From Ruminococcus sp. (GTDB lineage: Bacteria > Bacillota > Clostridia > Oscillospirales > Acutalibacteraceae): a stretch of 64,000 nucleotides of DNA. The DNA lies in contig JBGUUJ010000035.1 in assembly GCA_045133455.1 (NCBI GenBank), positions 2,550 through 66,549 on the forward strand. Reading direction: 5' to 3'. This document shows, in pieces, positions 1-20,755 of this stretch. Each line of letters opens with the position of its first letter. Position 1 is the first letter of the stretch. Made by a program: the position numbers and the translations under genes. A model generated the notes under the pieces. It worked only from the letters and a program-made list of their open reading frames with translations, was not told the origin of the DNA and made no database searches.

Positions 1-438
1 GAGCAGGAGCCTTTAACTGAATATCAGAGACTGATGAGGGGTGACTGTGAAGTCCTTTATAACCATCTTGGTACTAACCATACACAGATGGTTAAAGATA
101 CCATCGCTCTTGTGCCAGAAGGTGGTAACTATAAGGACCTTCCTCCTGGATGGGGCGAAAGCAGAAAGTTCCATATGGCTTGGACGCGACTGAACGGAAA
201 TGCCCCGGCAAGGACTGTTGATACAGGACACAGAAACCTTTTCCATTATCAGTACAATCGAATTCCTACTGTGCGCGAGAGCGCGAGAATGCAGTCATTC
301 CCTGACAATTTTGTTTTTACAGGTACAAAGACACAGCAAAGCAGACAGGTAGGAAATGCAGTTCCGCCGTTGTTGGGACAGGCACTTGGAGAAGCGATAA
401 TGAGAATTATACAGGAGAATGAAAATGGGCAAAACTAA
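1..438 (+). CDS. DNA (cytosine-5)-methyltransferase, C-terminal fragment (5' end outside window); first MTase of a LlaJI-like operon
   Basis: Frame 1 open from base 1 to TAA 436-438; C5-MTase motifs IX/X TVRESARMQSFPDNFVF and QVGNAVPPLL. Confidence 0.85.
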   Translation, partial: EQEPLTEYQRLMRGDCEVLYNHLGTNHTQMVKDTIALVPEGGNYKDLPPGWGESRKFHMAWTRLNGNAPARTVDTGHRNLFHYQYNRIPTVRESARMQSFPDNFVFTGTKTQQSRQVGNAVPPLLGQALGEAIMRIIQENENGQN

Positions 439-1669
439 AATTCGTTCCATCGATTTGTTTGCCGGATGTGGCGGATTGATGGATGGTTTTGAACAATCCG
501 GAGCCTTCGATACAATTGCAGCTGTTGAGTGGGAAAAAGTTCCCTGTAAAAATCTCGAAAACAGAATGCGTGAGAAGTGGCATTACCCCGATGCAGAAAC
601 ACGAGTTCTCCGCTTTGATATTCAAAGAACGGATGAATTGTTTGTGGGTTGGGAAAATGATAAAGAGTATGGTAACTCAGTTGGTTTAGATAAACTTATT
701 GACACTGTGGGCGGCATCGATGTCGTAATTGGTGGACCTCCCTGTCAGGCTTATTCCATTGCAGGGCGTGTTCGTGATGAGTTTGGCATGAAAAATGACT
801 ACCGAAATTATCTGTTTGAAAGCTACATCAAGGTATTAGACCGATACAGGCCTAAAGCATTTATCTTTGAAAATGTACCCGGGATATTAAGTGCAAAGCC
901 TGGTGATAGACCGATGATTGACATCATCCAGGAGAGTTTTCATGAGGCGGGGTATCTGTTGCTTTCCAATTTGGGTGAGGCAATAATTGACTTTACCGAC
1001 TATGGTGTTCCTCAAAACAGAAAGAGAATAATTATTTTCGGGGTTCGCAAGGATACTTTTGGAGACAGAAGTAGCGAAGCTATAAATTATTTCTATAAAG
1101 TAGCCTTGCCTAAACATAAAACCATGCAGAAAAAAACTGTTTATGAGGCAATCGGCGACTTGCCGAAGTTGTACCCTCTGTCTGAGGACCTAAAGGTAAA
1201 TGGTGCAAGAACAAGGCACTCTCTTCCTGAACGTGATGTTCCAAACCATGTAGCAAGATGGCAGAGTGACAGAGATGTTGGGATTTTTAAACTATTGACT
1301 GAAGATATCGAGTCTGGAAGAAATCAGTATACATCAATCGATGCACTGAAACAGTTATACACTAAGATGACGGGAAAGAACTCCAATGTTCATAAATATC
1401 ATGTTATCCGATGGGATGAGCCGAGTAACCTTATTCCAGCCCATCTTTATAAAGATGGCTTACGCCATATCCATCCAGATTCATCTCAACAGAGAACCAT
1501 AACCGTTAGAGAGGCAGCAAGATTACAAACTTTCGCTGATGATTATGTGTTTGAAGGCAGCAATATGGAATTGTATAAAATGATTGGAAATGCAGTGCCT
1601 CCGCTGTTTGCGAAGTGCTGCGCAGAAGCAGTTGTTGATACAATGTCAACATTTGGCATCATAGAGTAA
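419..1669 (+). CDS. DNA (cytosine-5)-methyltransferase (second MTase)
   Basis: Motif I DLFAGCGG, motif IV GGPPCQAYS, ENVPG, QNRKR, TVREAARLQTF, IGNAVPPLF; ATG 425 is better spaced from AGGAGA 411-416 than ATG 419; overlaps stop of upstream MTase. Confidence 0.93.
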   Translation: MKMGKTKIRSIDLFAGCGGLMDGFEQSGAFDTIAAVEWEKVPCKNLENRMREKWHYPDAETRVLRFDIQRTDELFVGWENDKEYGNSVGLDKLIDTVGGIDVVIGGPPCQAYSIAGRVRDEFGMKNDYRNYLFESYIKVLDRYRPKAFIFENVPGILSAKPGDRPMIDIIQESFHEAGYLLLSNLGEAIIDFTDYGVPQNRKRIIIFGVRKDTFGDRSSEAINYFYKVALPKHKTMQKKTVYEAIGDLPKLYPLSEDLKVNGARTRHSLPERDVPNHVARWQSDRDVGIFKLLTEDIESGRNQYTSIDALKQLYTKMTGKNSNVHKYHVIRWDEPSNLIPAHLYKDGLRHIHPDSSQQRTITVREAARLQTFADDYVFEGSNMELYKMIGNAVPPLFAKCCAEAVVDTMSTFGIIE

Positions 1670-1687
1670 TGAAAGGAGGAATGCATC

Positions 1688-4600
1688 ATGGCATATACAA
1701 CTTCGCAGGCTGTAGAGGCCTTAAATGAATATATGGGCTGTGATGAAGCCTTAAAACAGTACATAGAAGGTACGAAAGAAAGAGGCTTTGTTCTGTCCTT
1801 GAAGACCGGAGAGCAAATCGTGATTTTCGTTTACCCTTTGGTGCATAAACAAGATAATACTAAGAATTACTTTGACACAAGAGATAGTGGTGCGTATGAG
1901 CGTGGAGTAGCATGGAGATATGCGTTAGAACACGGTCTTAAGTACTACTGCTTTGGGTTGAATAGTTCTGTTGATAAGTATGAAAACTATATCTTCAGTC
2001 TTGAGTGCGGTGAGGAAACAATTGAGAAAATTTCCGGAACTAAGAATGGACAGCGAAGTGGTCCGGGTAATCAAATAATTATTCCTAACAATTACACGCC
2101 TGCCCTGCCTTTCGATAGAATCGTTAATAAGTTAGGGATTTATATTGCGGTAATACACAAGGACAAAATCTATGATTATATCTCGATGTATGATAACAGA
2201 CCTTATCTGAAGACAAGCACTGATGAAGTTACACAGCAAAATGATGATGCCAATGAGTACGAAAAGGCTGCCAGATATTTGCAGTCCTATGTCTCTGAAA
2301 CTGGCTTGGACATTCCTACGAAAAAGGATGATCTGGAATCTATACTTACAGAATTTACATCCAAGTTTTCTCCGGAGATTTTGGCAGCGTTATCGGATGA
2401 TGAACTGTTGAATTACCTGTTCTATACTGTTGGCGAGAACCAGGACTCCCTTTGCTGTTGGCTTGAAATGAACAAGGAGTGTCGTCAGCATTTTGGTAGT
2501 ATTTCCGGTGGTTCTGCTTATAAATTCGGTCTGTTCCAGAAACAGAAAACTGGAGAATGGACAACGGGTAGTCCTCAGAAACCACAGGTACTTACGGAAG
2601 ATGAGGCTTTAGAACTGGGGCGTAGCATACGAGATGCGTTGGTCAAGGCTGCAGGTATTGTTCAGAATGCAACTCTCGACACCCTTGCTGATTATGAGCA
2701 GTTGGATACTACTCTTTGGAACGAAGTCGGCGAGCCGTACTGTAATTGGGGTTGGTTCCACAAGTACCTTGCGATGGTTTGCCCAGATAAGCTGAGTTGT
2801 TTCCATTCCTCTGATTGGCAGCGCCACATTCTCTATGCATTGAAAATCAAGCCGAGTGAAAAATACTTTACTCGTAGCGGTCAGTTGGCCATGATTTCCA
2901 ATTATGCAGGATGGTATTATGGTGAGTTCAAGGATGTACTGTTTGAACGCTTTGGTGGAGACATCATTCAGTTTGTAAGAGTCGGCACTTCCGATGATAC
3001 CCAGAATTATGCAGCAGAATGGAATCAGAAATCTGTTATAGGTATCGGTTGGCGAGATATCGGTTCTCTTGAGGATTATGCCGCAGGTGAAGGTCTTGAT
3101 AAGGGTGCAATCACGGAGGCATTGAAAGAAAAATTCGGATATGCCGAGAATGTTGCCTCCCGCAAGGCAGGAGAACTTATTCGTTTTTATAAAATGGACG
3201 CAAGCACTGTTGTCGTTGCAATGGACGGCGAAAGTCTGTTAGCTTTTGTTGATGGTATCGGAAATTACTTCTATGATTTGACATCTGCAATGGCAAATAT
3301 GAAGCCTGGAACATGGCATCGCAATTTTGCATCCGGTGAGCAGCTCCCTGTGAAATCCGAGGGTAAATTGACATCTTGTTATCCTCTCACCGATGAGGCA
3401 AACTTGATGTTCCTGTATGATAGATACTATTACGGTAGCGAAGAAATTATTGATGAAGTCGATGAAATCGAGTTTGACAATCCGGAAGAACGTAATAAGC
3501 GTAACTTCCGTGCTTGGATGGAAACACAGGTTAAGCCGGAGGGTGATTCCGATGCAGGACAGCCTTACACGGCAAATTCCATCAATCAGTATGTAAGCAA
3601 CATTTCCAACACTCCACTCCCTTCTCATGAAGGACACAGTGTATTCTACACGGATGCTGTGATTGAAGTGCAGGATTGCTTGGTTGTGTTAGAAGCATCT
3701 GATAAGAAAAATAATACCCAAAGAAGTGCTGTCAAGAAATACTTGATGTACTTGATGGCGTTACAGGAGGTCAATATGCCGCTGATTTACAATACAGATT
3801 TACCAACTAAATATGAGAGAAATCGCATTGTCTTCGGCGCACCTGGTACTGGTAAGAGTTTCAATTTGAAGAGAGACTGCGAGGCGTGTCTGAAGGACAC
3901 AGAAGGTTCTTATGAGCGTGTGACTTTCCATCCGGATTACACATATTCTCAGTTTGTTGGAACATATAAGCCTGTTTCTGACGGTACCGCTATTCGCTAT
4001 GAATTTGTTCCGGGGCCGTTCATGAGGGTGTATGTTGAGGCATTGAAGAGTGCGCGTTCTTTGAATCCACAGCCTCATATTTTGATAATTGAAGAAATCA
4101 ACAGAGCCAAGGTGGCTGCTGTTTTCGGTGACATATTCCAGTTGCTTGACCGCGACGAGGATGGCGTCAGCGAATACGAAATTCAGACTTCTGAAGATAT
4201 CAGAAAGTATCTGGCAGCAGAACTGAAGTGCGATATTGCTATGTGCAAGAAAATCAAGATTCCGAATAATATGTTCATTTGGGCAACAATGAACAGTGCT
4301 GACCAAGGTGTATTCCCTATGGACACTGCATTCAAGCGCCGTTGGAATTTTGAGTATCTTGGCATTAATGAGAATCAGGATAAAATCAAAGGGCGTGTAC
4401 CAGTTGGAACTGTAAATACCCAAGAGATTGAATGGAATGTTCTGAGACGTGCAATTAACGAGAAAATTGCCAAGGAGTACAAGGTAAACGAAGACAAGCT
4501 GATGGGTCCGTTCTTCATTTCCAAGCGTGTACTGAAAACCGTTAGCGAGGAAAATGACACCCTTGTTGACGCAGCACGTTTTGTAGAAGTATTCAAGAGC

Positions 4601-4774
4601 AAGGTTATCATGTATCTTTACGAAGATGCAGCAAAACAGCATAAGCATAAGCTGTTCTCCGGTTGCGAGGATACCACCAAGTATTCTGCCGTATGCGACA
4701 GCTTTGACGAAATCGGAATCCAGATCTTCGGAGAGGATTTTGAGGAGGTTTATTATAATCCGCAGAAGGGATGA
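1688..4774 (+). CDS. McrB-like GTPase/AAA+ restriction subunit with ~690-aa N-terminal extension (LlaJI R1-like)
   Basis: Walker A FGAPGTGKS (3833-3859), Walker B LIIEEINRA, McrB-type MNSADQG and AFKRRW motifs; RBS GGAGGA; starts 18 nt after MTase stop. Confidence 0.85.
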   Translation: MAYTTSQAVEALNEYMGCDEALKQYIEGTKERGFVLSLKTGEQIVIFVYPLVHKQDNTKNYFDTRDSGAYERGVAWRYALEHGLKYYCFGLNSSVDKYENYIFSLECGEETIEKISGTKNGQRSGPGNQIIIPNNYTPALPFDRIVNKLGIYIAVIHKDKIYDYISMYDNRPYLKTSTDEVTQQNDDANEYEKAARYLQSYVSETGLDIPTKKDDLESILTEFTSKFSPEILAALSDDELLNYLFYTVGENQDSLCCWLEMNKECRQHFGSISGGSAYKFGLFQKQKTGEWTTGSPQKPQVLTEDEALELGRSIRDALVKAAGIVQNATLDTLADYEQLDTTLWNEVGEPYCNWGWFHKYLAMVCPDKLSCFHSSDWQRHILYALKIKPSEKYFTRSGQLAMISNYAGWYYGEFKDVLFERFGGDIIQFVRVGTSDDTQNYAAEWNQKSVIGIGWRDIGSLEDYAAGEGLDKGAITEALKEKFGYAENVASRKAGELIRFYKMDASTVVVAMDGESLLAFVDGIGNYFYDLTSAMANMKPGTWHRNFASGEQLPVKSEGKLTSCYPLTDEANLMFLYDRYYYGSEEIIDEVDEIEFDNPEERNKRNFRAWMETQVKPEGDSDAGQPYTANSINQYVSNISNTPLPSHEGHSVFYTDAVIEVQDCLVVLEASDKKNNTQRSAVKKYLMYLMALQEVNMPLIYNTDLPTKYERNRIVFGAPGTGKSFNLKRDCEACLKDTEGSYERVTFHPDYTYSQFVGTYKPVSDGTAIRYEFVPGPFMRVYVEALKSARSLNPQPHILIIEEINRAKVAAVFGDIFQLLDRDEDGVSEYEIQTSEDIRKYLAAELKCDIAMCKKIKIPNNMFIWATMNSADQGVFPMDTAFKRRWNFEYLGINENQDKIKGRVPVGTVNTQEIEWNVLRRAINEKIAKEYKVNEDKLMGPFFISKRVLKTVSEENDTLVDAARFVEVFKSKVIMYLYEDAAKQHKHKLFSGCEDTTKYSAVCDSFDEIGIQIFGEDFEEVYYNPQKG

Positions 4775-4780
4775 TAGGAT

Positions 4781-6250
4781 ATGGAGATAAAGATTCGTTC
4801 TCGCTATGTCCGAGAACAGCAGCGTTACACTAAGAATCAGCTGCGTACTCTTTTCTCCTACGATGATGTAGGAGTAGAAAAATTCATAAAAAGCCTAAAG
4901 TCCTACGGTATTTTAAAGACCGTTGCAAACACTGCGGAGCAGAAAGAATTGACAGACCTTGTTGATGAAGATGTCCAGATGGTGGATGAAACTGCCGGAA
5001 ACGATGATTGCTATTATGTGTTTACATATGTTGGTGTCATTACTATCGGAAATCGTGTAATCAAGGTTTATCCGAAATATATTCTTTCTGAAAATGAACC
5101 GCTTGCAAGAATGAAGCAGGTTGTGAAAGTTCTTGAACGCTACAGCCATTCGGAGGAGCAAATCATAAATCTGTTTAATGGTGACGGAGATAACCGCAGT
5201 TTTAATATTCTTGCGGTTATCCTGTACCTTTTGAACGACTACTACGAGTACGGCGTTTATAACAACAGCGAGGATATTTTGGAAGTCAACGGCGAAGGCG
5301 ATATTCTTTGGAACAGAACCATCGATGACGGATTTGTTATTATCGAGGAAGGCCGCCCGTATTATACAGAACTGATTACTCGTAGGTCAGTAGAAGATGA
5401 TATGGACTATTTCAAGCGCCTGCATGAGTGCGTTCTTACGGAATGTTCCAAGCAGCTCCAAGATGCTGGACTAAAAGAATTGTTTGAAATCGATTCTGTT
5501 TCCTTAAGTGATGAAGCCTTGGAGGACTTTGGCGAAAAGGAATATATTCTTGAGCGAATCATGAAAGAGTTGAATGTCCAGTTCAACACGCATCGGCAGA
5601 TTTTGCTCAAAACACTGTACACCTACATTTCACAGGACAGAAAAATGCTTGAAGAAAATCAAGGCATTAGTATGTTTGGCACCACCGCATTTCATGCAGT
5701 TTGGGAAAAGGCTTGTGCAGCCGCATTCGGAAACAAACTGGATGTTGCGATTGGTCAGTTGCAAATGAAGGAGCCGTTGGCAGACGGATACAATAAGAAA
5801 ACCAAGCTGATAGATTTGGTTGAGAAGCCAAAATGGTGTGGAGAGGGCTTTGTTCACGAACCCAAGGATACCCTTATCCCCGACCTCATTACCATCAATG
5901 AGTACAGTGGGCAGGATTGGTTCATCATTTTCGATGCCAAGTATTATCTGATTCAGCTTGAAAAAGGTCGCACATTAAGGGGCAACCCTGGCGTTGGCGA
6001 TGTAGTGAAGCAGTATATGTATCAGTTGGCATATAAGAAATTCTTGGCAGACCACCATATTGCGGTTGTTAAGAACTGCTTTTTGATGCCGACCGAAGGA
6101 AACGAAATAATAAACAAAGGGAACGCCAAATTGGATATGCTTTCCGAATTAGGACTGGAGGATATCCAGATACGTTTGATTCCGGCTGATATGCTTTTCG
6201 ATTGTTACTTGAGGCGAAAGACAATAGCTATCGAAAAATTGGAGTTGTAG
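4781..6250 (+). CDS. McrC-like / LlaJI R2-like PD-(D/E)xK nuclease subunit
   Basis: Starts 6 nt after the McrB-like gene; IPDL(x20)FDAKYY resembles PD...(D/E)xK (DAK at 5933-5941); gene order M-M-McrB-like-McrC-like matches LlaJI organisation. Confidence 0.7.
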   Translation: MEIKIRSRYVREQQRYTKNQLRTLFSYDDVGVEKFIKSLKSYGILKTVANTAEQKELTDLVDEDVQMVDETAGNDDCYYVFTYVGVITIGNRVIKVYPKYILSENEPLARMKQVVKVLERYSHSEEQIINLFNGDGDNRSFNILAVILYLLNDYYEYGVYNNSEDILEVNGEGDILWNRTIDDGFVIIEEGRPYYTELITRRSVEDDMDYFKRLHECVLTECSKQLQDAGLKELFEIDSVSLSDEALEDFGEKEYILERIMKELNVQFNTHRQILLKTLYTYISQDRKMLEENQGISMFGTTAFHAVWEKACAAAFGNKLDVAIGQLQMKEPLADGYNKKTKLIDLVEKPKWCGEGFVHEPKDTLIPDLITINEYSGQDWFIIFDAKYYLIQLEKGRTLRGNPGVGDVVKQYMYQLAYKKFLADHHIAVVKNCFLMPTEGNEIINKGNAKLDMLSELGLEDIQIRLIPADMLFDCYLRRKTIAIEKLEL

Positions 6251-6272
6251 CAGACATAAAGGAGGGTAGATT

Positions 6273-8156
6273 ATGGCAGCACATCGTTCATTTGCTGAAT
6301 ATGTAAAAAAGAAATTTGATAATAATTTCTGGGCGGCTGCCGAAAGCTACCTGGAGGCAAACCTTGATTCTCTGGGTATCGAATTAAAGAGAATCCATCG
6401 TGCCGGAGAGACGGAGATTTCAGATGTCAAGGTAGAACACGTGTGGGTTGAAGACAAACCGGGCATGGAGGTGCATTTCGATGTGGCCATTTCTATTTGG
6501 TTTGAAACCCATGATGGAGATTACCATTACGACGATTATGATGAAAATATCGTGTGGATGATGGCTCATTGCCGTGGTGATCTGGATAAGAACCTGGATG
6601 ATTTTGAAATCCTGCGGGTATCAAAATACAACGGCAAAAGCCGTGTGAAAGACCCGATGGACGATTCTCTTGTGCCGATTATCCCATATGAAAAGTTGGA
6701 TGATGTGGCAACAGCATTCTTGCAGGAATATTATCCGGCGGCACTTCGCATTCCAATGCGTGGTCAAGACCCTGTATGGGTTGACCCGACAGAACTTGCA
6801 AAGAACATGGGGTTAACCGTCAAAAATCAGCGTATCCGTGAAGATGGTTCTGTATTTGGACAAATTTATTTTGATGATACCGATACAGTAATGTACGATG
6901 CAAACGAGGATGCAGATGTTCCTACACACATCAAAGGAAAAACAATTGTTTTGGACCCGCAGATTTATCTGCTTCGAAATCTTGGTTCATTTAATAATAC
7001 CATTGTCCACGAGTGTGTTCACTGGGCGAAGCATCGTAAGGCATTCAAACTGGAACAGCTATTCAATACGGATGCTTCTTACATTAGTTGCAAGGTTGTT
7101 GGCGACGCGGATTCTCGCATATCCATAAAATCTACAAAGTATATGGAAAAGCAGGCTAATCAGCTTGCACCGAGAATCCAGATGCCGAAGGAACCTTTTA
7201 CAATAAAGGCTAAAGAATACATAGCCTATTTCATGAGACAGACCGATGCAAGGCATACGGTTGATGTCATGGAAATGGTAATCGGGGCATTGGGGCGGGA
7301 TTATGGTGTTTCACGACAAGCCGTAAAAGTCCGATTGGTAGAGCTTGGCTTTGAAGAAGCCATCGGCACATTTAACTATGTTGATGGACACTATGTAAAG
7401 CCACATGGTTTCCGCAAAGGTGCTATCAAAGTTAATCAGACATTTACTTTGAGCGCCCAAGACGCTGCAGTTCAGCGTTTTATGGATTTGGAACTCCGTG
7501 AAAAGACCGCAAACGGCGATTATCTTTTCGTGGATAACCATTTTGTTTATAACGCTCCCCTATATGTCGGTTATAGCAAAGATGGTAAACTTGAACTGAC
7601 TGATTATGCCCGAGCGCATATGGATGAATGCTGTCTTGCTTTTGATATGGAAATCACAAGCAAGGTAGAATCCACATACCATACTGCCTGTTTCCTTAAT
7701 CGTGAGCCGAGCGATGTAACCTTTGATATTACATATCACAACGGATATCAAAACGCGCCGCAATCGCGCCAGGTAGAGATGAGGAAAAAGCAACAGGCTG
7801 AATGGTTGGAAATTCGCAGGCAGATGACGGATGACCCTGAACAGTGTATGGATTTATTGCTTGATTGGCGTGGAATGAAGTACACGGACCTTGGTGATGC
7901 GATTGACCGTGACCCTAAAACAATCAGCCGAACAGTGAAAGGAACAACAAATCCATCTGTTGAAACAGCGGTTCTTATTTGCTTTGGCATGAACCTTCCT
8001 CCTGTTATCAGTGAAAAGCTGTTGGATGTTTTGAATTGCAAGTTAAAGCCTATGAATCCAGATCATCAGTGGATTAGCGAGGCTTTGCACGTGAAGTATC
8101 CGGAGCCATTGTGGGCAGTCAGAGAGTATCTGGAACAGTACGGTGTAAATATTTAA
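6273..8156 (+). CDS. ImmA/IrrE (peptidase M78)-like metalloprotease fused to a C-terminal XRE-like HTH; N-terminal ~240 aa unassigned
   Basis: HECVH (7008-7022) followed ~45 aa later by EKQANQLAPRIQMP, the M78 pattern; C-terminal YTDLGDAIDRDPKTISRTVKGTTNPSVETAVLICFGMNL looks like an HTH; RBS AAGGAGGG; 22 nt after nuclease stop. Confidence 0.65.
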   Translation: MAAHRSFAEYVKKKFDNNFWAAAESYLEANLDSLGIELKRIHRAGETEISDVKVEHVWVEDKPGMEVHFDVAISIWFETHDGDYHYDDYDENIVWMMAHCRGDLDKNLDDFEILRVSKYNGKSRVKDPMDDSLVPIIPYEKLDDVATAFLQEYYPAALRIPMRGQDPVWVDPTELAKNMGLTVKNQRIREDGSVFGQIYFDDTDTVMYDANEDADVPTHIKGKTIVLDPQIYLLRNLGSFNNTIVHECVHWAKHRKAFKLEQLFNTDASYISCKVVGDADSRISIKSTKYMEKQANQLAPRIQMPKEPFTIKAKEYIAYFMRQTDARHTVDVMEMVIGALGRDYGVSRQAVKVRLVELGFEEAIGTFNYVDGHYVKPHGFRKGAIKVNQTFTLSAQDAAVQRFMDLELREKTANGDYLFVDNHFVYNAPLYVGYSKDGKLELTDYARAHMDECCLAFDMEITSKVESTYHTACFLNREPSDVTFDITYHNGYQNAPQSRQVEMRKKQQAEWLEIRRQMTDDPEQCMDLLLDWRGMKYTDLGDAIDRDPKTISRTVKGTTNPSVETAVLICFGMNLPPVISEKLLDVLNCKLKPMNPDHQWISEALHVKYPEPLWAVREYLEQYGVNI

Positions 8157-8175
8157 AATTTTTTTCATAAAAAAA

Positions 8176-8192
8176 CGGACATGGCGTGTCCG
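8176..8192. repeat. palindromic hairpin CGGACAYGGCGTGTCC, copy 1
   Basis: cggacatggcgtgtccg: 6-bp stem, 5-nt loop, preceded by an A-run; near-identical copy at 9359-9374. Confidence 0.6.
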
Positions 8193-8208
8193 GTGAAATG
8201 GGGGGGAC

Positions 8209-9237
8209 ATGATGGGATTAACCATGCTTGAGATGATAGATAACAGGTTGGCGCACTTTTTTCCGCAGCCGGAATTATACGATGTTTCCCCGTTTAGCAT
8301 TGAGAATCTGCGTGATTGTATCATCATGTTTATTCTTAAAGATGCGTACTATTTGACTGAGCCGAAACAATCGTTAAGAGAAAATCGAGGAACGGATGCT
8401 GACGATGTAAGAATGCGTGACAGCAGAAATATTGCATATGCTCAGCATTATCGAGACCTTCAGTATAATCATGTAAAAAATGACTTAGGTATTGAAATAC
8501 CGGAGTTGCTTTCTGCGGATGTTGAAACCATGCGTGGAAAACTGCAGGGGCATAATATTACCCCGATGCAGTATTTTGAATTAAATACGCTTGCAGACCA
8601 TCCACTGCTTAAAGCTATCGTAAATAAGCGAATCTGTGACGTAAAGAAAATATCCAATGCAACCTTCCTTGAATATATGCAGGATTATGATAAATTGGTA
8701 AGCCTGCTTCTTAAAAAACTGGATGGCTCGGATGAGGATGTTATTTTCGGTACAATCGCCTTGTTTACATTGGAATGGAAATATAATGTAGAACTGTTTT
8801 ATTCCTGTGCAGTCAATGCGGAAGAAGTAGGGGTTCAGGATGTTCCGGTGCATCGCCTGGCGGGATTATGCGCCGAACTTTCAATGCCGTTAGCACCGGA
8901 TTTTACACAGATGCTTCATACAGAAAGTCGATTTGTCCTACACAGGCTGAAACTGGTACCAACCGTATATACCGTATCGGAATCAGATTGGGATGAAGTA
9001 AAAGATAAAATATGCCATTATCAGACGGCCAGATATTATATTGAGAAAGAGATTGTACGCAAATGGGATATGGCAGGTTTCTTTGCCCGATACACCACAA
9101 GAGAACAGTGGGCAAAATTCTTCCGGGAACACTATGATTTAAGACAAATATACGTTCAGAAGGAATGGAATAATAAACGCATTCGCTATATGAGAAGTAT
9201 TTATAGTGCGATGATTAAGAACCAACCTACACCATAA
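8209..9237 (+). CDS. hypothetical protein (342 aa, no motif recognised)
   Basis: Long ORF, same strand as upstream operon, followed by strong terminator 9295-9337; G-rich RBS before ATGATG. Confidence 0.5.
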   Translation: MMGLTMLEMIDNRLAHFFPQPELYDVSPFSIENLRDCIIMFILKDAYYLTEPKQSLRENRGTDADDVRMRDSRNIAYAQHYRDLQYNHVKNDLGIEIPELLSADVETMRGKLQGHNITPMQYFELNTLADHPLLKAIVNKRICDVKKISNATFLEYMQDYDKLVSLLLKKLDGSDEDVIFGTIALFTLEWKYNVELFYSCAVNAEEVGVQDVPVHRLAGLCAELSMPLAPDFTQMLHTESRFVLHRLKLVPTVYTVSESDWDEVKDKICHYQTARYYIEKEIVRKWDMAGFFARYTTREQWAKFFREHYDLRQIYVQKEWNNKRIRYMRSIYSAMIKNQPTP

Positions 9238-9294
9238 TCCCGTTTTTCCGATTTTTCGTTCTTAAAAGCCTTCATAAAATTTAGATAAAATTAA

Positions 9295-9337
9295 GCCAGA
9301 ACATGAGAGTAAATACTCTTCGTGTTCTGGCTTTTTT
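9295..9337 (+). terminator. Rho-independent terminator after the 342-aa ORF
   Basis: gccagaacatgagag...ctcttcgtgttctggc long stem followed by TTTTTT. Confidence 0.8.
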
Positions 9338-9358
9338 GCGTTTTACGGCAATTTTTAG

Positions 9359-9374
9359 CGGACACGGCGTGTCC
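9359..9374. repeat. palindromic hairpin CGGACAYGGCGTGTCC, copy 2
   Basis: cggacacggcgtgtcc, one mismatch to the copy at 8176-8192; the two copies flank the 342-aa ORF. Confidence 0.6.
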
Positions 9375-9512
9375 ATCGCAGAAAAAAATTCCAGTGTAAA
9401 CTATAAATAAAAACGCCTGACATTGAGACGGGTACACAGAAATGCGTATCCATCTGAGTGCCAGACACTCAAATAAAAAATATTCCAATGCCCGAAGTGG
9501 TCGACCTTAAGG

Positions 9513-9681
9513 CGGCGGGATACATCAAGAGTAAAATTCACGGTATAGCCGTGGACTGACCAAAGATGTACCCACCGTACTTTGTCATGCCCATTTTCGG
9601 TATCAGAGTCGGTGTGTAGCATCACATCGGCTCTTTTTGTGTCCCTGCCGCCACCCAGTCGGGCGGAAAAGAAAGGCAGGG
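9513..9681 (+). ncRNA. candidate structured cis-regulatory leader, copy A
   Basis: P1 9513-9526/9565-9577; P2 9539-9543/9549-9553; conserved core 9574-9601; intrinsic terminator 9605-9638 (12-bp stem with 2 G-U, then T5); hairpin 9643-9649/9675-9681 next to an RBS; stems covary with copy B. Confidence 0.6.
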
Positions 9682-10083
9682 ATTTCAAATGAGGAAATTC
9701 AAAACAGCGGAAGACAACCGTACAAATTACATTTACTACTTCAACGATGGTACAAGCTAGCTTGCTTATAAAGTCTTTAAATTGCATTTTATATCCTTCC
9801 CTATACAAGCCTATTCTGCACTAGCCAGTTATACCAATCCGATTTTCTATAATGAAAGCGACCCTAAGGCAAAGGGGGTCAAGCCTTGCAGAGAGGCAAA
9901 GCAGATTGGCAGAGAAATACACAATAGTGCTTTATGGGTGATGCTTAAGTATAGCACAAATTTGTAAATTTTTCTACCAAGTCTGTAAATGTCAATTCTG
10001 CGAACGCAATATTCAAATTCGCAATTTGCGGATTAACTTTCCGATAACCATATCAATCTCAAAGTCCGAGATGGCCATTAGGA

Positions 10084-10261
10084 CGGCGGGATGCATAGAG
10101 AATCCACACACAGCTTCACAGCTGTGCCAGGGATGAAGATGCACCCACCGTACTTCGTCATGCCCATTTTTCGGTCTGTTGGAGTCTGCGGTCATCTTCT
10201 GACCCCAGGCTCCTTCTTTTTGCATTCCGCTGTCCGAACCCCGTCCGGCAGAAAGGAATGC
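10084..10261 (+). ncRNA. candidate structured cis-regulatory leader, copy B (directly upstream of sigma-like gene)
   Basis: P1 10084-10096/10139-10150; P2 10109-10115/10120-10126; conserved core 10147-10175; terminator 10181-10221; hairpin 10222-10228/10255-10261 overlapping RBS GAAAGGA before GTG 10265. Confidence 0.6.
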
Positions 10262-10264
10262 TTA

Positions 10265-10828
10265 GTGAAGATTCAAATTTTGTATGAGGAAAACATCAGA
10301 AACGGACACAAGGTCTACACCACCATTGATATCCCTGACGGAGATTACAGCGTCATGCTGGATATCGACTACGAACAGAGGCTTGCAGAGGCAAAGCCGG
10401 AAAAGAAGGCAGAGGTCAAACGCTGTGAGACTGTGCAGGAGATGTTCGACCTGATGAACAAGAGAGAGTACAACGACTGGCGCAGGGAACACCGATACAT
10501 CGATCCGAACCCGAAGGCAAAGAAGATGGACGGTCACAAGGGCTATATCCAGGGAGATCCGGAAGATGAGTCTTTTGACATCATGGACTATCTGCTTACG
10601 GCATCGGACGATCATACCGACCTCGAGCGTGAGGAAGTCTGCTCCTGGATTCGCTCTGTACTTATTAAAAAACCGCAGTGGGCAGAAGCGTTTATCGCTG
10701 TCCGTATTGACGGCATGCCTATTCGAAAGTATGCAGCCACGGTCGGTGAGTCTGAGAACAGCATTACTCAGAAGCTGAACCGTGCCGCAAAAAAAATAAA
10801 AGAATTTTACGGAAACCGTAAGATTTGA
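10265..10828 (+). CDS. sigma-70 region-4-like transcription regulator (phage/ICE type)
   Basis: C-terminal HTH IDGMPIRKYAATVGESENSITQKLNRAAKKIK; GTG 10265 lies 7 nt after GAAAGGA; the ORF-track start 10091 would read through terminator 10181-10221. Confidence 0.55.
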   Translation: MKIQILYEENIRNGHKVYTTIDIPDGDYSVMLDIDYEQRLAEAKPEKKAEVKRCETVQEMFDLMNKREYNDWRREHRYIDPNPKAKKMDGHKGYIQGDPEDESFDIMDYLLTASDDHTDLEREEVCSWIRSVLIKKPQWAEAFIAVRIDGMPIRKYAATVGESENSITQKLNRAAKKIKEFYGNRKI

Positions 10829-10866
10829 CCGCCTCCCAAGGCTACCACTTGGAGGCGATGACCTCC
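10811..10866 (+). promoter_or_regulatory. boxA/boxB-like RNA motif, copy a
   Basis: GGAAACCGTAAGATTTGA then stem 10830-10840/10848-10857 with loop GCTACCA; alternative hairpin GGAGG/CCTCC 10851-10866; overlaps stop codon of the sigma-like gene. Confidence 0.5.
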
Positions 10867-10891
10867 GAATAAATTCAAGGAGGTAATTCGA

Positions 10892-11671
10892 ATGGAATTA
10901 CAAGTGTTTAACAACGCAGAGTTCGGCTCTGTAAGAACAACCACAGTAAACGGTGAGGTTATGTTTGTTGCTAAGGACATAGCCACGATCCTCGGTTACA
11001 GCAATCCGAGAGATGCTATCAACAAGCACGTTTATGATGAAGACAAGGGAGTAGCAAAATGCGACACCCTTGGCGGTGTTCAAGATTTGACTATCATCAA
11101 TGAATCGGGACTTTACAGTCTTATCCTGTCAAGCAAAATGCCTAACGCGAGGAAGTTCAAGCGCTGGGTAACAGCAGAGGTTCTTCCGGCGATCCGCAGA
11201 CACGGGATGTATGCAACAGAGGAACTTATCGCAAATCCCGACCTCGCTATTGCAGCATTCCAGGCATTGAAGGCCGAGCGTGAAAAGAGACAGGCTCTTG
11301 AGGAAGCGGTCGCAGTACAGGCACAGCAGATCGCAGAGCTTAAGCCGAAGGCAACCTATTACGATGTGGTTCTTAAATGTAAGGATGCCGTAAATATCTC
11401 CGTCATTGCCAAGGATTACGGCTGGAGCGCACAGCGAATGAACGAGTACCTGCATCAGAAGGGCGTGCAGTACAAGCAGGCAGACATCTGGCTTCTCTAC
11501 CAGAAGCATGCCGGATGTGGCTACACCAAGACCAACACACACGTTTACGAAGACACCTGTGGTCGTGAACATACCAAGGTCCATACCAAGTGGACGCAGA
11601 AAGGCAGACTGTTCATCTACGGACTGCTAAAAGCTGACGGTGTGTATCCTCAGATTGAGATGGAGGTTTAG
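10892..11671 (+). CDS. phage antirepressor (BRO-N + KilAC-like domains)
   Basis: N-terminal FGSVRTTTVNGEVMFVAKDIATILGY...ESGLYSLILSSKMPNARKFKRWV (Bro-N); C-terminal YYDVVLKCKDAVNISVIAKDYG; RBS AAGGAGG. Confidence 0.85.
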   Translation: MELQVFNNAEFGSVRTTTVNGEVMFVAKDIATILGYSNPRDAINKHVYDEDKGVAKCDTLGGVQDLTIINESGLYSLILSSKMPNARKFKRWVTAEVLPAIRRHGMYATEELIANPDLAIAAFQALKAEREKRQALEEAVAVQAQQIAELKPKATYYDVVLKCKDAVNISVIAKDYGWSAQRMNEYLHQKGVQYKQADIWLLYQKHAGCGYTKTNTHVYEDTCGREHTKVHTKWTQKGRLFIYGLLKADGVYPQIEMEV

Positions 11672-16869: not shown

Positions 16870-17084
16870 CCGACCCTTATCAGAACCTTGCCAATGCTAT
16901 CATCCTGTCAGCGGTCAAGGACTGGCGGTTAGCAAGGCGAAAACTGAAACGAAAACCAAATAACAAGGATGCAAAGATACTGCTTGAGGAGTGTGAGAAC
17001 TTCTTCCACTCCCAGTGGTATGCATCCCTTACCGATGTGGATGGCGAAATGCTTATCCGCAGACTCTATGAGGAGGATAGATAA
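16866..17084 (+). CDS. small phage protein, unknown function
   Basis: ATGA overlap with helicase stop; RBS GGAGGTG. Confidence 0.5.
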   Translation: MTDPYQNLANAIILSAVKDWRLARRKLKRKPNNKDAKILLEECENFFHSQWYASLTDVDGEMLIRRLYEEDR

Positions 17085-17509
17085 TGACAGCAAAAGAATA
17101 TTTGAAACAGGCATACCGCATTGACCACAGAATCAATTCCGATATCGCAGAGCTTGGAAGGCTTCGTGAGATGTCCACGAGTATTTCTTCACCAAACTTG
17201 GGAGATAAGGTACAGATCAGTCACAGTGGTGATGCTCCCTTCATGAAATGCTTGGAACGCATCTATGACCTGGAAGCGAGGATCAACGATGAGATCGACC
17301 TTTTCGTAGATCTCAAGAATGAGATACGAAGCGTCATTGATACGGTTCCCAACACAGATGAACGCATGGTGCTTCGCTACAGATACATTCACAATTTCAC
17401 CTGGGAGCAGATCGGTGACGAACTGAGTGCTGACTCTCGTACCGTAAGGAGATGGCATGGACAGGCTCTGCAGCATGTGGTGCTTCCGGAAAATCCTATC
17501 AAAATTTAA
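17084..17509 (+). CDS. DUF1492 / RinA-ArpU-like late transcription regulator (sigma region-4-like)
   Basis: ERMVLRYRYIHNFTWEQIGDELSADSRTVRRWHGQAL HTH; sits just upstream of the HNH/TerS packaging genes. Confidence 0.7.
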   Translation: MTAKEYLKQAYRIDHRINSDIAELGRLREMSTSISSPNLGDKVQISHSGDAPFMKCLERIYDLEARINDEIDLFVDLKNEIRSVIDTVPNTDERMVLRYRYIHNFTWEQIGDELSADSRTVRRWHGQALQHVVLPENPIKI

Positions 17510-20422: not shown

Positions 20423-20755
20423 ATGAAGGTAGCAGTAGTAGGTTCAAGAAATCTTACAATCAATAATCTTGGCGACTATCTGCCCAAAGATACAACGGAA
20501 ATAGTCAGCGGCGGTGCAAGAGGAATTGACAGGTGTGCAAGAATGTATGCAAATACCCATAGCATAAAGCTGACGGAATTTCTGCCCCAATATGAAATCT
20601 ATGGACGGTCAGCTCCATTAAAAAGAAATCTGCAAATAATCGGATATGCCGATATGGTTCTCGCCTTTTGGGACGGCAAATCCAACGGAACACGCTTTGT
20701 AATTGAAAACTGCAAAAAGGAGAATATTCCGATTAAGGTATTCACTACTGTTTAA
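20423..20755 (+). CDS. SLOG/DUF2493 (DprA-like Rossmann) protein
   Basis: VAVVGSRN...IVSGGARGIDRCA...VLAFWDGKSNGT. Confidence 0.7.
   Translation: MKVAVVGSRNLTINNLGDYLPKDTTEIVSGGARGIDRCARMYANTHSIKLTEFLPQYEIYGRSAPLKRNLQIIGYADMVLAFWDGKSNGTRFVIENCKKENIPIKVFTTV

Follow-up and report, generated by a model that had tools for sequence, protein, structure and literature searches.

The window analyzed here, a 64,000-nucleotide stretch of contig JBGUUJ010000035.1 from Ruminococcus sp. (GenBank assembly GCA_045133455.1, positions 2,550 to 66,549 of the forward strand), encodes a protein resembling region 4 of sigma-70 factors, and two structured elements in tandem, copies A and B, lie upstream of its gene. 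The genes after the sigma-like gene (Ant, VapE primase/helicase, SNF2, VRR-NUC and terminase) mark the region as a prophage. An earlier note on this DNA had proposed two related structured copies at this place, and they are genuine, representing two subtypes of a single structured leader RNA family of about 200 nt. A shared core, ACCGTACTTYGTCATGCCCATTTT, is present exactly twice in the window, at 9574 and 10147, for a chance expectation of 0. The copies show 75% column identity when aligned, both fold much better than dinucleotide shuffles (z = -6.2 for copy B, -5.7 for copy A), and a covariance model run on the window scores 191 and 151 bits on the + strand with no match on the - strand.

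The anatomy of both copies (Table 1) can be drawn as a fold called OFF here, consisting of a P0 hairpin, a P1 helix formed by strands S1 and S2 with a conserved bulged A, a P2 hairpin, an intrinsic terminator T, and a hairpin of strands S3 and S4 that buries the Shine-Dalgarno (SD) sequence. P1 reads GGG-A-UACAUC/GAUGUA-CCC in copy A and GGG-A-UGCAU/AUGCA-CCC in copy B. The earlier note had named P1, P2, the terminator stems with their U tracts and the hairpins at the ribosome-binding site (RBS), and all are present on reading and folding; the order it described, a structured 5' domain, an intrinsic terminator and an RBS-sequestering hairpin before the sigma-like gene, is also borne out. It located the elements correctly but began them about 23 nt too far 3' (the true starts are 9490 and 10064), missing the conserved P0 hairpin. 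Its core included an ACCG/CGGU stem; this "core stem" is not conserved in other subtypes across the family and has been dropped, as has the similarity it saw downstream of the copies (GATTTCAAAT...ATGAGGAAA), which falls in different reading contexts in the two and is judged not meaningful. It did not mention three features described below: the long-range S1:S3 helix, the complementarity between S2 and the loop of the terminator, and the palindrome in the loop of P0.

Table 1. Features of the two leaders and the regulated gene (positions are those of the window)
Feature	Position	Strand	Details
Copy A leader	9490-9688	+	A subtype
Copy A P0 hairpin	9490-9513	+	GCC...GGC; apical self-complementary GGUCGACC at 9499-9506 (palindrome analysis)
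Copy A S1	9511-9526	+	GGCGGCGGGAUACAUC; partner S2 (P1, bulged A 9520) or S3
Copy A P2 hairpin	9539-9553	+	CACGG-UAUAG-CCGUG; P2 covaries strongly
Copy A J2/1 and S2	9563-9578	+	AAGAUGUACCCACCGU; 3' strand of P1, also complementary to terminator top (GUAG-CAUC)
Copy A intrinsic terminator T	9605-9638	+	12-bp stem, 6-nt loop, UUUUU; picked by terminator scan
Copy A S3 and RBS hairpin	9638-9681	+	S3 UGUGUCCCUGCCGCC 9638-9652; CCCUGCC (9643-9649)/GGCAGGG (9675-9681), from folding
A-type sigma-like gene stump	9689-9760	+	23 codons; full length (162 aa) in L009 6640-7128
B module left end	9758-10054		first 10 codons of divergent - strand gene (ATG 9787-9785; NACHT-type in L244) and divergent promoter region
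Copy B leader	10064-10264	+	B subtype
Copy B P0 hairpin	10064-10084	+	GUCC...GGAC; apical palindrome AUGGCCAU at 10071-10078
Copy B S1	10081-10096	+	GGACGGCGGGAUGCAU; P1 bulged A at 10091
Copy B P2 hairpin	10109-10126	+	CACAGCU-UCAC-AGCUGUG
Copy B J2/1 and S2	10135-10151	+	GAAGAUGCACCCACCGU; 3' strand of P1; GAAGAUG complementary to terminator loop CAUCUUC
Copy B core	10152-10180	+	U-rich
Copy B terminator T	10181-10221	+	stem 10181-10213, GGAGUCUGCGG/CCCCAGGCUCC, one C-C mismatch; loop UCAUCUUCUGA 10192-10202; U-rich tail 10214-10221
Copy B S3 and RBS hairpin	10221-10261	+	S3 UGCAUUCCGCUGUCC 10221-10235; GCAUUCC (10222-10228)/GGAAUGC (10255-10261); SD AAAGGA within 3' arm (S4, to 10261)
Regulated sigma-like gene	10265-10828	+	187 aa, sigma-70 region-4/ECF-like (extracytoplasmic function), GTG start, phrog_11138

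Homologues of the leader were collected by several routes. IMG/VR was sampled by a 15-nt DNA pattern scan followed by nhmmer, which recognizes at least 66 true homologues among the 120 loci listed from the pattern scan. The pattern used for species-representative genomes, ACCCACCGTN{80,110}GRCRGAAARG, was too permissive, with 104 of the 120 listed loci being chance matches; at least 16 among those 120 are true homologues, every one in Bacillota (Longicatena, Proteiniclasticum, Pelosinus, Sporomusaceae, Dorea, Eubacterium, Neglectibacter, Syntrophomonas, Oscillospiraceae, Ruminococcus and Robinsoniella). Much of this first sample was fetched by a DNA pattern within S2, so the seeming invariance of AGAUGYACCCACCGU is partly ascertainment (the loci L244, L275 and L308 deviate within it), and a second retrieval was anchored on the sigma-like protein to offset the bias. 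Of the 69 loci retrieved in this way whose 5' flank reaches 250 nt or more, 68 have the leader directly upstream of the gene. (The sole exception is L300, where a simple strong terminator at ~1380-1500, GAAGCGGAGA...UCUCCGCUUC followed by GGUUUUUU, stands immediately before the RBS in place of the leader.) The covariance model picks up divergent subfamilies missed by nhmmer, and family-wide its + strand scores range over 38-255 bits, with those of the - strand reaching 27 bits at most.

Overall, the collection exceeds 150 homologues, each immediately 5' of a gene homologous to the sigma-70 region-4/ECF-like one of the window. They come from phage contigs of IMG/VR, from 16 Bacillota genomes and from three deposited phages, namely Streptococcus phage Javan630, Erysipelothrix phage phi1605 and Ruminococcus phage NatCom_38182. 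In these phages, the only three with the leader among 50,697 deposited phage genomes, BLASTN with copy B aligns to a 73-75% identical noncoding stretch before the homologous gene; in phi1605 and NatCom_38182 the leader region is partly mis-annotated as "hypothetical protein". A plasmid search gave no match to the leader. The nhmmer and Infernal search suggested in the earlier note yields a family in phage and Bacillota genomes, compensatory changes included. The note did not recognize a known Rfam family, and against Rfam 15, whose families include the T-box (RF00230), known riboswitches, c4 antisense RNAs and the phage motifs of Weinberg 2017, cmscan returns no match in the whole window at the gathering threshold and nothing overlapping the elements at E <= 10, no match in 11 homologous loci, and nothing relevant for a Streptococcus-type leader at E <= 10. 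No description of the leader was found in the literature and catalogues searched (Heliusvirales, phage antitermination RNAs, structured-RNA catalogues, kissing-loop homodimers). HMP2_12012, the only sigma-associated candidate in the human-microbiome catalogue, is unrelated, being a 42-nt Peptostreptococcus motif beside ribosomal genes. The leader is apparently a previously undescribed, widespread RNA family in prophages of Gram-positive bacteria.

Some loci carry further features 5' of the leader. A conserved, covarying hairpin, GAUAGGYAG-N-GAUUUGAAUAAUCAGC-CURCCUAUC, lies ~55-70 nt upstream of P0 in L001 (2925-2965) and 27 further loci; it occurs in loci of the Streptococcus and L309 types, has another small hairpin after it, and may belong to the same 5' untranslated region as the leader. 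In phages of Streptococcus and Erysipelothrix, the leader region is immediately preceded by a small lysine-rich open reading frame (ORF) (L001 2765-2908, L002 2774-2902), which encodes 47 aa in Javan630 and is apparently interrupted in phi1605.

The gene behind the leader is the only one that accompanies it consistently. Its protein cluster lies downstream in 72 of 81 loci, and across those 81 loci no conserved upstream gene or regulator was found. The relatives are labeled "sigma-70 family RNA polymerase sigma factor" by NCBI. The protein of the window scores 17.2 bits for region 4 in Pfam, below the curated cut-off of 25.7, and an A-type homologue scores above it; the structure model is confident for residues 120-185 only (a C-terminal sigma-4-like domain), and the Foldseek matches are weak, all of them sigma factors (ECF) and all with E > 0.001. 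The protein would be sigma-like by its region 4, with region 2 lacking support; its predicted structure gives no clue to RNA binding. A second sigma-70 region-4/DUF1492 (ArpU-like) gene lies at 17084-17509, before the terminase genes, and has no leader copy.

Pairing in the OFF fold is preserved throughout the family. When 67 sequences are aligned by MAFFT, OFF partners pair in 88.6% of cells, against 33-45% with partners slid; on the covariance-model alignment of 65 sequences, which includes the divergent subfamilies, the figure is 90.5% against 37-48%. On the latter alignment, which was fitted to the OFF structure so that OFF pair counts are inflated, 39 of 46 OFF pairs are changed on both sides (the compensatory changes that the two copies had already suggested), and the covariation score reaches 0.44, a level attained by none of 500 shuffles, which score 0.20. 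In every subfamily P1 keeps its bulged A, and the distal helix beyond it is rewritten (UGCAU:AUGCA, UAUCUC:GAGAUA, CAUAAAU:AUUUAUG). In the outer and inner helices of S3:S4, 11 of 12 pairs are changed on both sides, the duplex energy is -19.2 kcal/mol for cognate and -15.3 kcal/mol for non-cognate strands, and the SD region of the homologues is ~76% paired in the local hairpin. The terminator hairpin averages -13.9 kcal/mol, and at least 5 U occur among the 8 nt 3' of T in 51 of 64 leaders. The P0 stem covaries as well (22/48 UA45/CG13). Minimum-free-energy folds instead propose a single long 5' "rod" that joins the 5' arm of P0 to the core, and the palindrome to GCGCC/AUGCC; its helices are complementary yet without covariation, and the pairing of palindrome with core (X:Y) is absent in one subgroup of leaders, L311-L323. 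The local P0 is the supported helix, with the rod kept as a possibility.

The same strands have a second set of partners. RNAalifold was the first source of a pairing between S1 and S3, the latter lying just after the U tract. This helix measures 14-15 bp in all subtypes (e.g. GGACGGCGGGAUGCA/UGCAUUCCGCUGUCC in copy B) and appears in the minimum-free-energy fold of full-length copy B, whose S1 finds its best + strand partner in the whole window in its own S3, and reciprocally. On the 65-sequence alignment, which was not fitted to these ON helices, S1:S3 is 84.5% paired with 7 pairs doubly changed, and a helix between S2 and the loop of T has 8 pairs doubly changed; slid controls are 35-53% paired. 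The S2(+J2/1):T-loop variants are rewritten in step (GAAGAUG:CAUCUUC, GAAGUAC:GUACUUC, GAGAUA:UAUCUC, GAUGUAC:GUACAUC, CGAGAUG:CAUCUCG, CCGGAUU:AAUUCGG). An alignment-free duplex test, in which the segments of each of 33 representatives were paired with each other or with segments from the remaining representatives, finds that P2, T, S1:S2, S1:S3 (cognate -24.0, non-cognate -21.5 kcal/mol), S3:S4, S2:T-loop and J1/2:T-3' arm co-evolve; four segment pairs serving as negative controls show none. On paper the two sets of helices are mutually exclusive.

These helices suggest that the leader is a bistable cis-regulator of the phage sigma-like gene, working at two levels through mutually exclusive folds and OFF by default. 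In the OFF state, S1 and S2 would form P1 and close the P2 hairpin, the T hairpin with its U tract would then form and stop transcription, and any read-through RNA would still be untranslatable, with S3:S4 hiding the SD sequence. In the ON state, S2 and J2/1 would engage the apical loop of T as antiterminator, a 7-bp helix in a 9-11 nt loop being, on steric grounds, incompatible with the full 10-11 bp T stem. The freed S1 would capture S3 in the 14-15 bp long-range helix; since it is S3 that hides the SD in the OFF state, S1 would act as an anti-sequestor, opening the ribosome site and leaving S4 and the start codon free. Constrained folding favors OFF over ON in 64 of 67 homologues, with a mean difference of 7 kcal/mol, which implies that an activating input is needed. 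We put the probability of this reading at roughly 0.6, jointly with the account of the two copies given below.

Several points weigh against it, beyond the inflated OFF counts and the partial ascertainment in S2 already described. In the L311-L323 subgroup (L311, L312, L315, L317, L319, L320 and L323) the T hairpin has just -1 to -3.5 kcal/mol and no U tract. The S2:T-loop helix uses mostly loop nucleotides and might represent a tertiary pseudoknot instead of antiterminator pairing. OFF is the thermodynamic and likely the kinetic default, and copy B itself is one of the three exceptions, with ON favored by a predicted 3.3 kcal/mol. A C-C mismatch (10189/10205) interrupts its terminator stem and is absent from its relatives L123, L102 and L192, and copy B may, by these models, be leakier than the family norm. 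The L311-L323 leaders mean that termination control is not universal; they retain P0, P1, S1:S3 and S3:S4 despite the loss of the terminator, and the translational gate accordingly looks like the core function of the leader.

What would switch a two-level leader of this kind is less clear, and a trans-acting protein or host factor is our tentative first candidate. A phage or host RNA-binding protein, perhaps the sigma-like protein as autoregulator, might bind the bulged-A helix of P1, S1 or S2. The sigma-like gene is the only constant companion of the leader, the OFF ground state requires an active input, and the conserved bulged A of P1 fits such recognition, a conserved bulged A in a G-C-rich helix being a classic protein recognition feature. 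However, leader and protein subtypes are shuffled (copy B and L244 have 95% identical proteins and differ in S1, S2 and X), and the confidently modeled sigma-4-like domain presents no evident RNA-binding fold. A partner RNA was also sought: the window holds no complementary trans-acting RNA above background except the leader's own segments. A stretch at ~20491-20530 (+) has unusual complementarity to S3 of copy B (-28.3 against a background of ~-23 kcal/mol), probably by chance.

The earlier note spoke of riboswitch or attenuator architecture. An RNA-level cis-regulatory leader is upheld; metabolite sensing is unproven. In such a riboswitch P0, P1, P2 and the core would be the aptamer, and a host metabolite would decide between terminator plus RBS hairpin and read-through, coupling early prophage expression to host physiology. 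The order of aptamer-like domain, terminator and RBS hairpin fits this, as does the conservation in every subfamily of the bulged A and a 1x1 mismatch of P1; the very high conservation across hosts from Streptococcus to Negativicutes would suit a universal ligand over a co-evolving phage protein, and the 81 loci contain no conserved partner protein besides the regulated gene. Yet nearly all conserved nucleotides possess one or two alternative pairing partners and few are conserved unpaired, so that base pairing explains the conservation without a ligand pocket. The fold has no multi-helix junction and no obvious pocket, Rfam has no matching riboswitch, and the downstream genes give no metabolic hint. 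We consider a small-molecule ligand doubtful.

The P0 loop offers another kind of input. A centered perfect palindrome of 6-10 nt occupies 20 of 20 distinct P0 loops, in at least nine different sequences (AUGCGCAU, AUGGCCAU, UAGCGCUA, GGUCGACC, GGCGCC, GGCGCGCC, UUGCAA, GCUGGCCAGC and others; the 10-nt GCUGGCCAGC is that of the L311-L323 subgroup). The central four bases are always self-complementary (GCGC, GGCC, UCGA, CGCG or UGCA), which is not required of an ordinary tetraloop. The symmetry, kept through paired changes, is often lengthened by G-U pairs, which argues for a feature of the RNA. The self-duplex of the palindrome comes to -14.7 kcal/mol for cognate against -8.9 kcal/mol for non-cognate partners, 5.9 better than hetero-duplexes, and the palindromes of copy B and L244 differ though their sigma proteins are 95% identical, so the specificity would be for "self" rather than that of a protein. 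The simplest reading these sequences suggest is RNA-RNA self-recognition by a kissing loop. A switch built on it would respond to RNA concentration: the P0 loops of nascent and accumulated terminated leaders would kiss and turn OFF into ON, giving the sigma gene a threshold or positive feedback. No mechanistic route could be derived from P0 kissing to P1 disruption, however; part of the palindrome also pairs with the downstream core (X:Y) in many, not all, subtypes; and a symmetric protein site at the DNA level is an alternative source of the palindrome. We hold such a switch slightly more doubtful than a ligand. Even the two taken together, that P0 kissing flips the leader from OFF to ON above a threshold of its own RNA or that the leader is a new riboswitch class gating early prophage development by a host metabolite, seem somewhat unlikely, if a little less so than either alone.

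A purely kinetic or constitutive attenuator, with no input, is in our estimate unlikely. An element acting at the DNA level (operators, an origin or a recombination site) is very improbable, as is a region coding for a small protein or a leader peptide. Dimeric proteins could bind the palindromes, a promoter region adjoins the element and two phages carry a "hypothetical protein" annotation there, but the scores of the covariance model are strand-asymmetric, G-U pairs and compensatory changes are numerous, indels are not multiples of three, and on direct reading the inner inverted repeat of P0 does not, in most subtypes, share its center with the outer one. Leader-peptide attenuation was considered separately and rejected, with no start column common to more than 30 of 64 sequences (47%), varying lengths and stops, and few candidate starts with an SD sequence.

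The tandem arrangement, which the earlier note took to be two switches in series gating the regulator, has another origin. Up to 9759, where the identity ends, the whole left part of the window (1-9759) matches IMG/VR contig L055 at 97% identity, and 6258-9759 matches L009 and L093, likewise at 97%. The 23-codon ORF that the note reported after copy A is present; it is what is left of the 5' end of a sigma-like gene (162 aa) that related phages keep intact, as in L009, where an A-type leader precedes the gene starting MRKFKTAEDNRTNYIYYFNDGTS. The stop codon of the stump arose at the recombination junction. On the other side, window 9758-11000 is 87% identical to L244 2492-3739. The point in L244 that matches 9758 lies 10 codons inside a - strand NACHT gene; next come the intergenic region between the divergent genes, a leader of the B type and the sigma gene. 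With two lineages matched and a junction at 9758-9760, the window is a fusion of two related phages, and a second leader copy was found at none of ~160 other loci. The tandem leaders, judging by these matches, are a recombination scar and not a designed arrangement. Copy B with its own promoter region would be the working leader of the resident sigma gene, and copy A with the stump a leftover of module exchange; the probability given above for the two-level leader covers this account jointly.

Transcription signals around the two leaders are sparse. The promoter scan and the alignments offer nothing convincing of sigma-A type on the + strand just upstream of P0. A strong promoter-like site of the divergent region of the B module, TTGACA-16-AAAAAT, is found at 9995-9968 (-), and a terminator-like hairpin upstream of leader A at 9430-9414 (-); an antisense transcript could, going by these sites, cross the whole of leader A in the chimera. 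An inverted repeat, GGACACGGCGTGTCC, lies at 9360-9374, ~130 nt upstream of leader A, and a similar one, CGGACATGGCGTGTCCG, takes the same relative position in NatCom_38182 (L003 ~2843-2858); from their sequences both appear operator-like.

The left arm of the prophage (34-6250) contains C-5 cytosine methyltransferase ORFs at 34-438 and 419-1669, an McrB-like AAA protein at 1688-4774 and an LlaJI-type restriction endonuclease at 4781-6250, which look like an LlaJI-like restriction-modification cassette carried as cargo. Window 6273-8156 encodes a 627-aa protein with weak Peptidase_M78 (ImmA/IrrE) and HTH_3 signatures, both below Pfam cut-offs; to judge from these it could be a derepression or repressor component not seen by the earlier note.

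The leader shares parts of its design with several known systems. Like the terminator/antiterminator leaders of Bacillota (riboswitch expression platforms, T-box, pyr and trp attenuators), it has a GC-rich hairpin and U tract in a 5' leader before the regulated ORF, and an upstream strand, S2, that pairs either with an anti-antiterminator (S1) or with the terminator in alternative OFF and ON folds. Unlike them, it has no known sensor domain that we could find and no Rfam match, its candidate antiterminator targets the apical loop of the terminator instead of the 5' arm, and the same S1 strand also works a downstream translational gate. Translational auto-inhibition of the kind seen in erm-type leaders and in the rpoS leader, which is opened by DsrA, RprA or ArcZ, also involves an upstream strand that buries the SD or start (here S3:S4) and opening when another strand, here S1, captures it; in rpoS the regulated gene is likewise a sigma factor. 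Here the opener is cis-encoded in the same leader and is itself masked (S1:S2), and neither a small RNA (window search) nor a leader peptide (64 sequences) was seen.

The P0 loop resembles the dimerization initiation site (DIS) of HIV-1 and other kissing-loop homodimers in carrying a GC-rich self-complementary sequence of 6-10 nt that varies by lineage and stays self-complementary. The context is different: the putative dimer would be one of a bacterial prophage mRNA leader, and a packaging role is not expected for a double-stranded DNA phage. Finally, the put RNAs of HK022 and countertranscript attenuation (pT181, pIP501, pCF10 prgQ/Anti-Q) are also cases of a structured RNA of a mobile element that heads an early operon and decides read-through of a nearby terminator, and the three plasmid systems use loop-loop kissing. 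In contrast to these, the present leader shows no conserved antisense promoter, its terminator is an integral, covarying part of the RNA and not a distant target, and its loop is self-complementary, so that the partner would be a sense RNA.

The leader stands at the entry of the early/replication operon of a large, mostly uncultured temperate phage lineage of Bacillota, with hosts that include human-gut Clostridia, Streptococcus, Erysipelothrix and Negativicutes. As a well-covarying new RNA family it is suitable for Rfam, and with it the "hypothetical protein" calls of deposited genomes can be put right. In S1 it provides a compact case from nature of a single strand that would work two gates, and its always-palindromic loop is a candidate for functional RNA homodimerization in bacteria, which is rarely documented. 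If the proposed mechanism is true, these prophages supplement the usual control of lysis versus lysogeny by a repressor with an RNA-level, two-tier lock on termination and translation, and identifying the input would reveal what they sense before committing.

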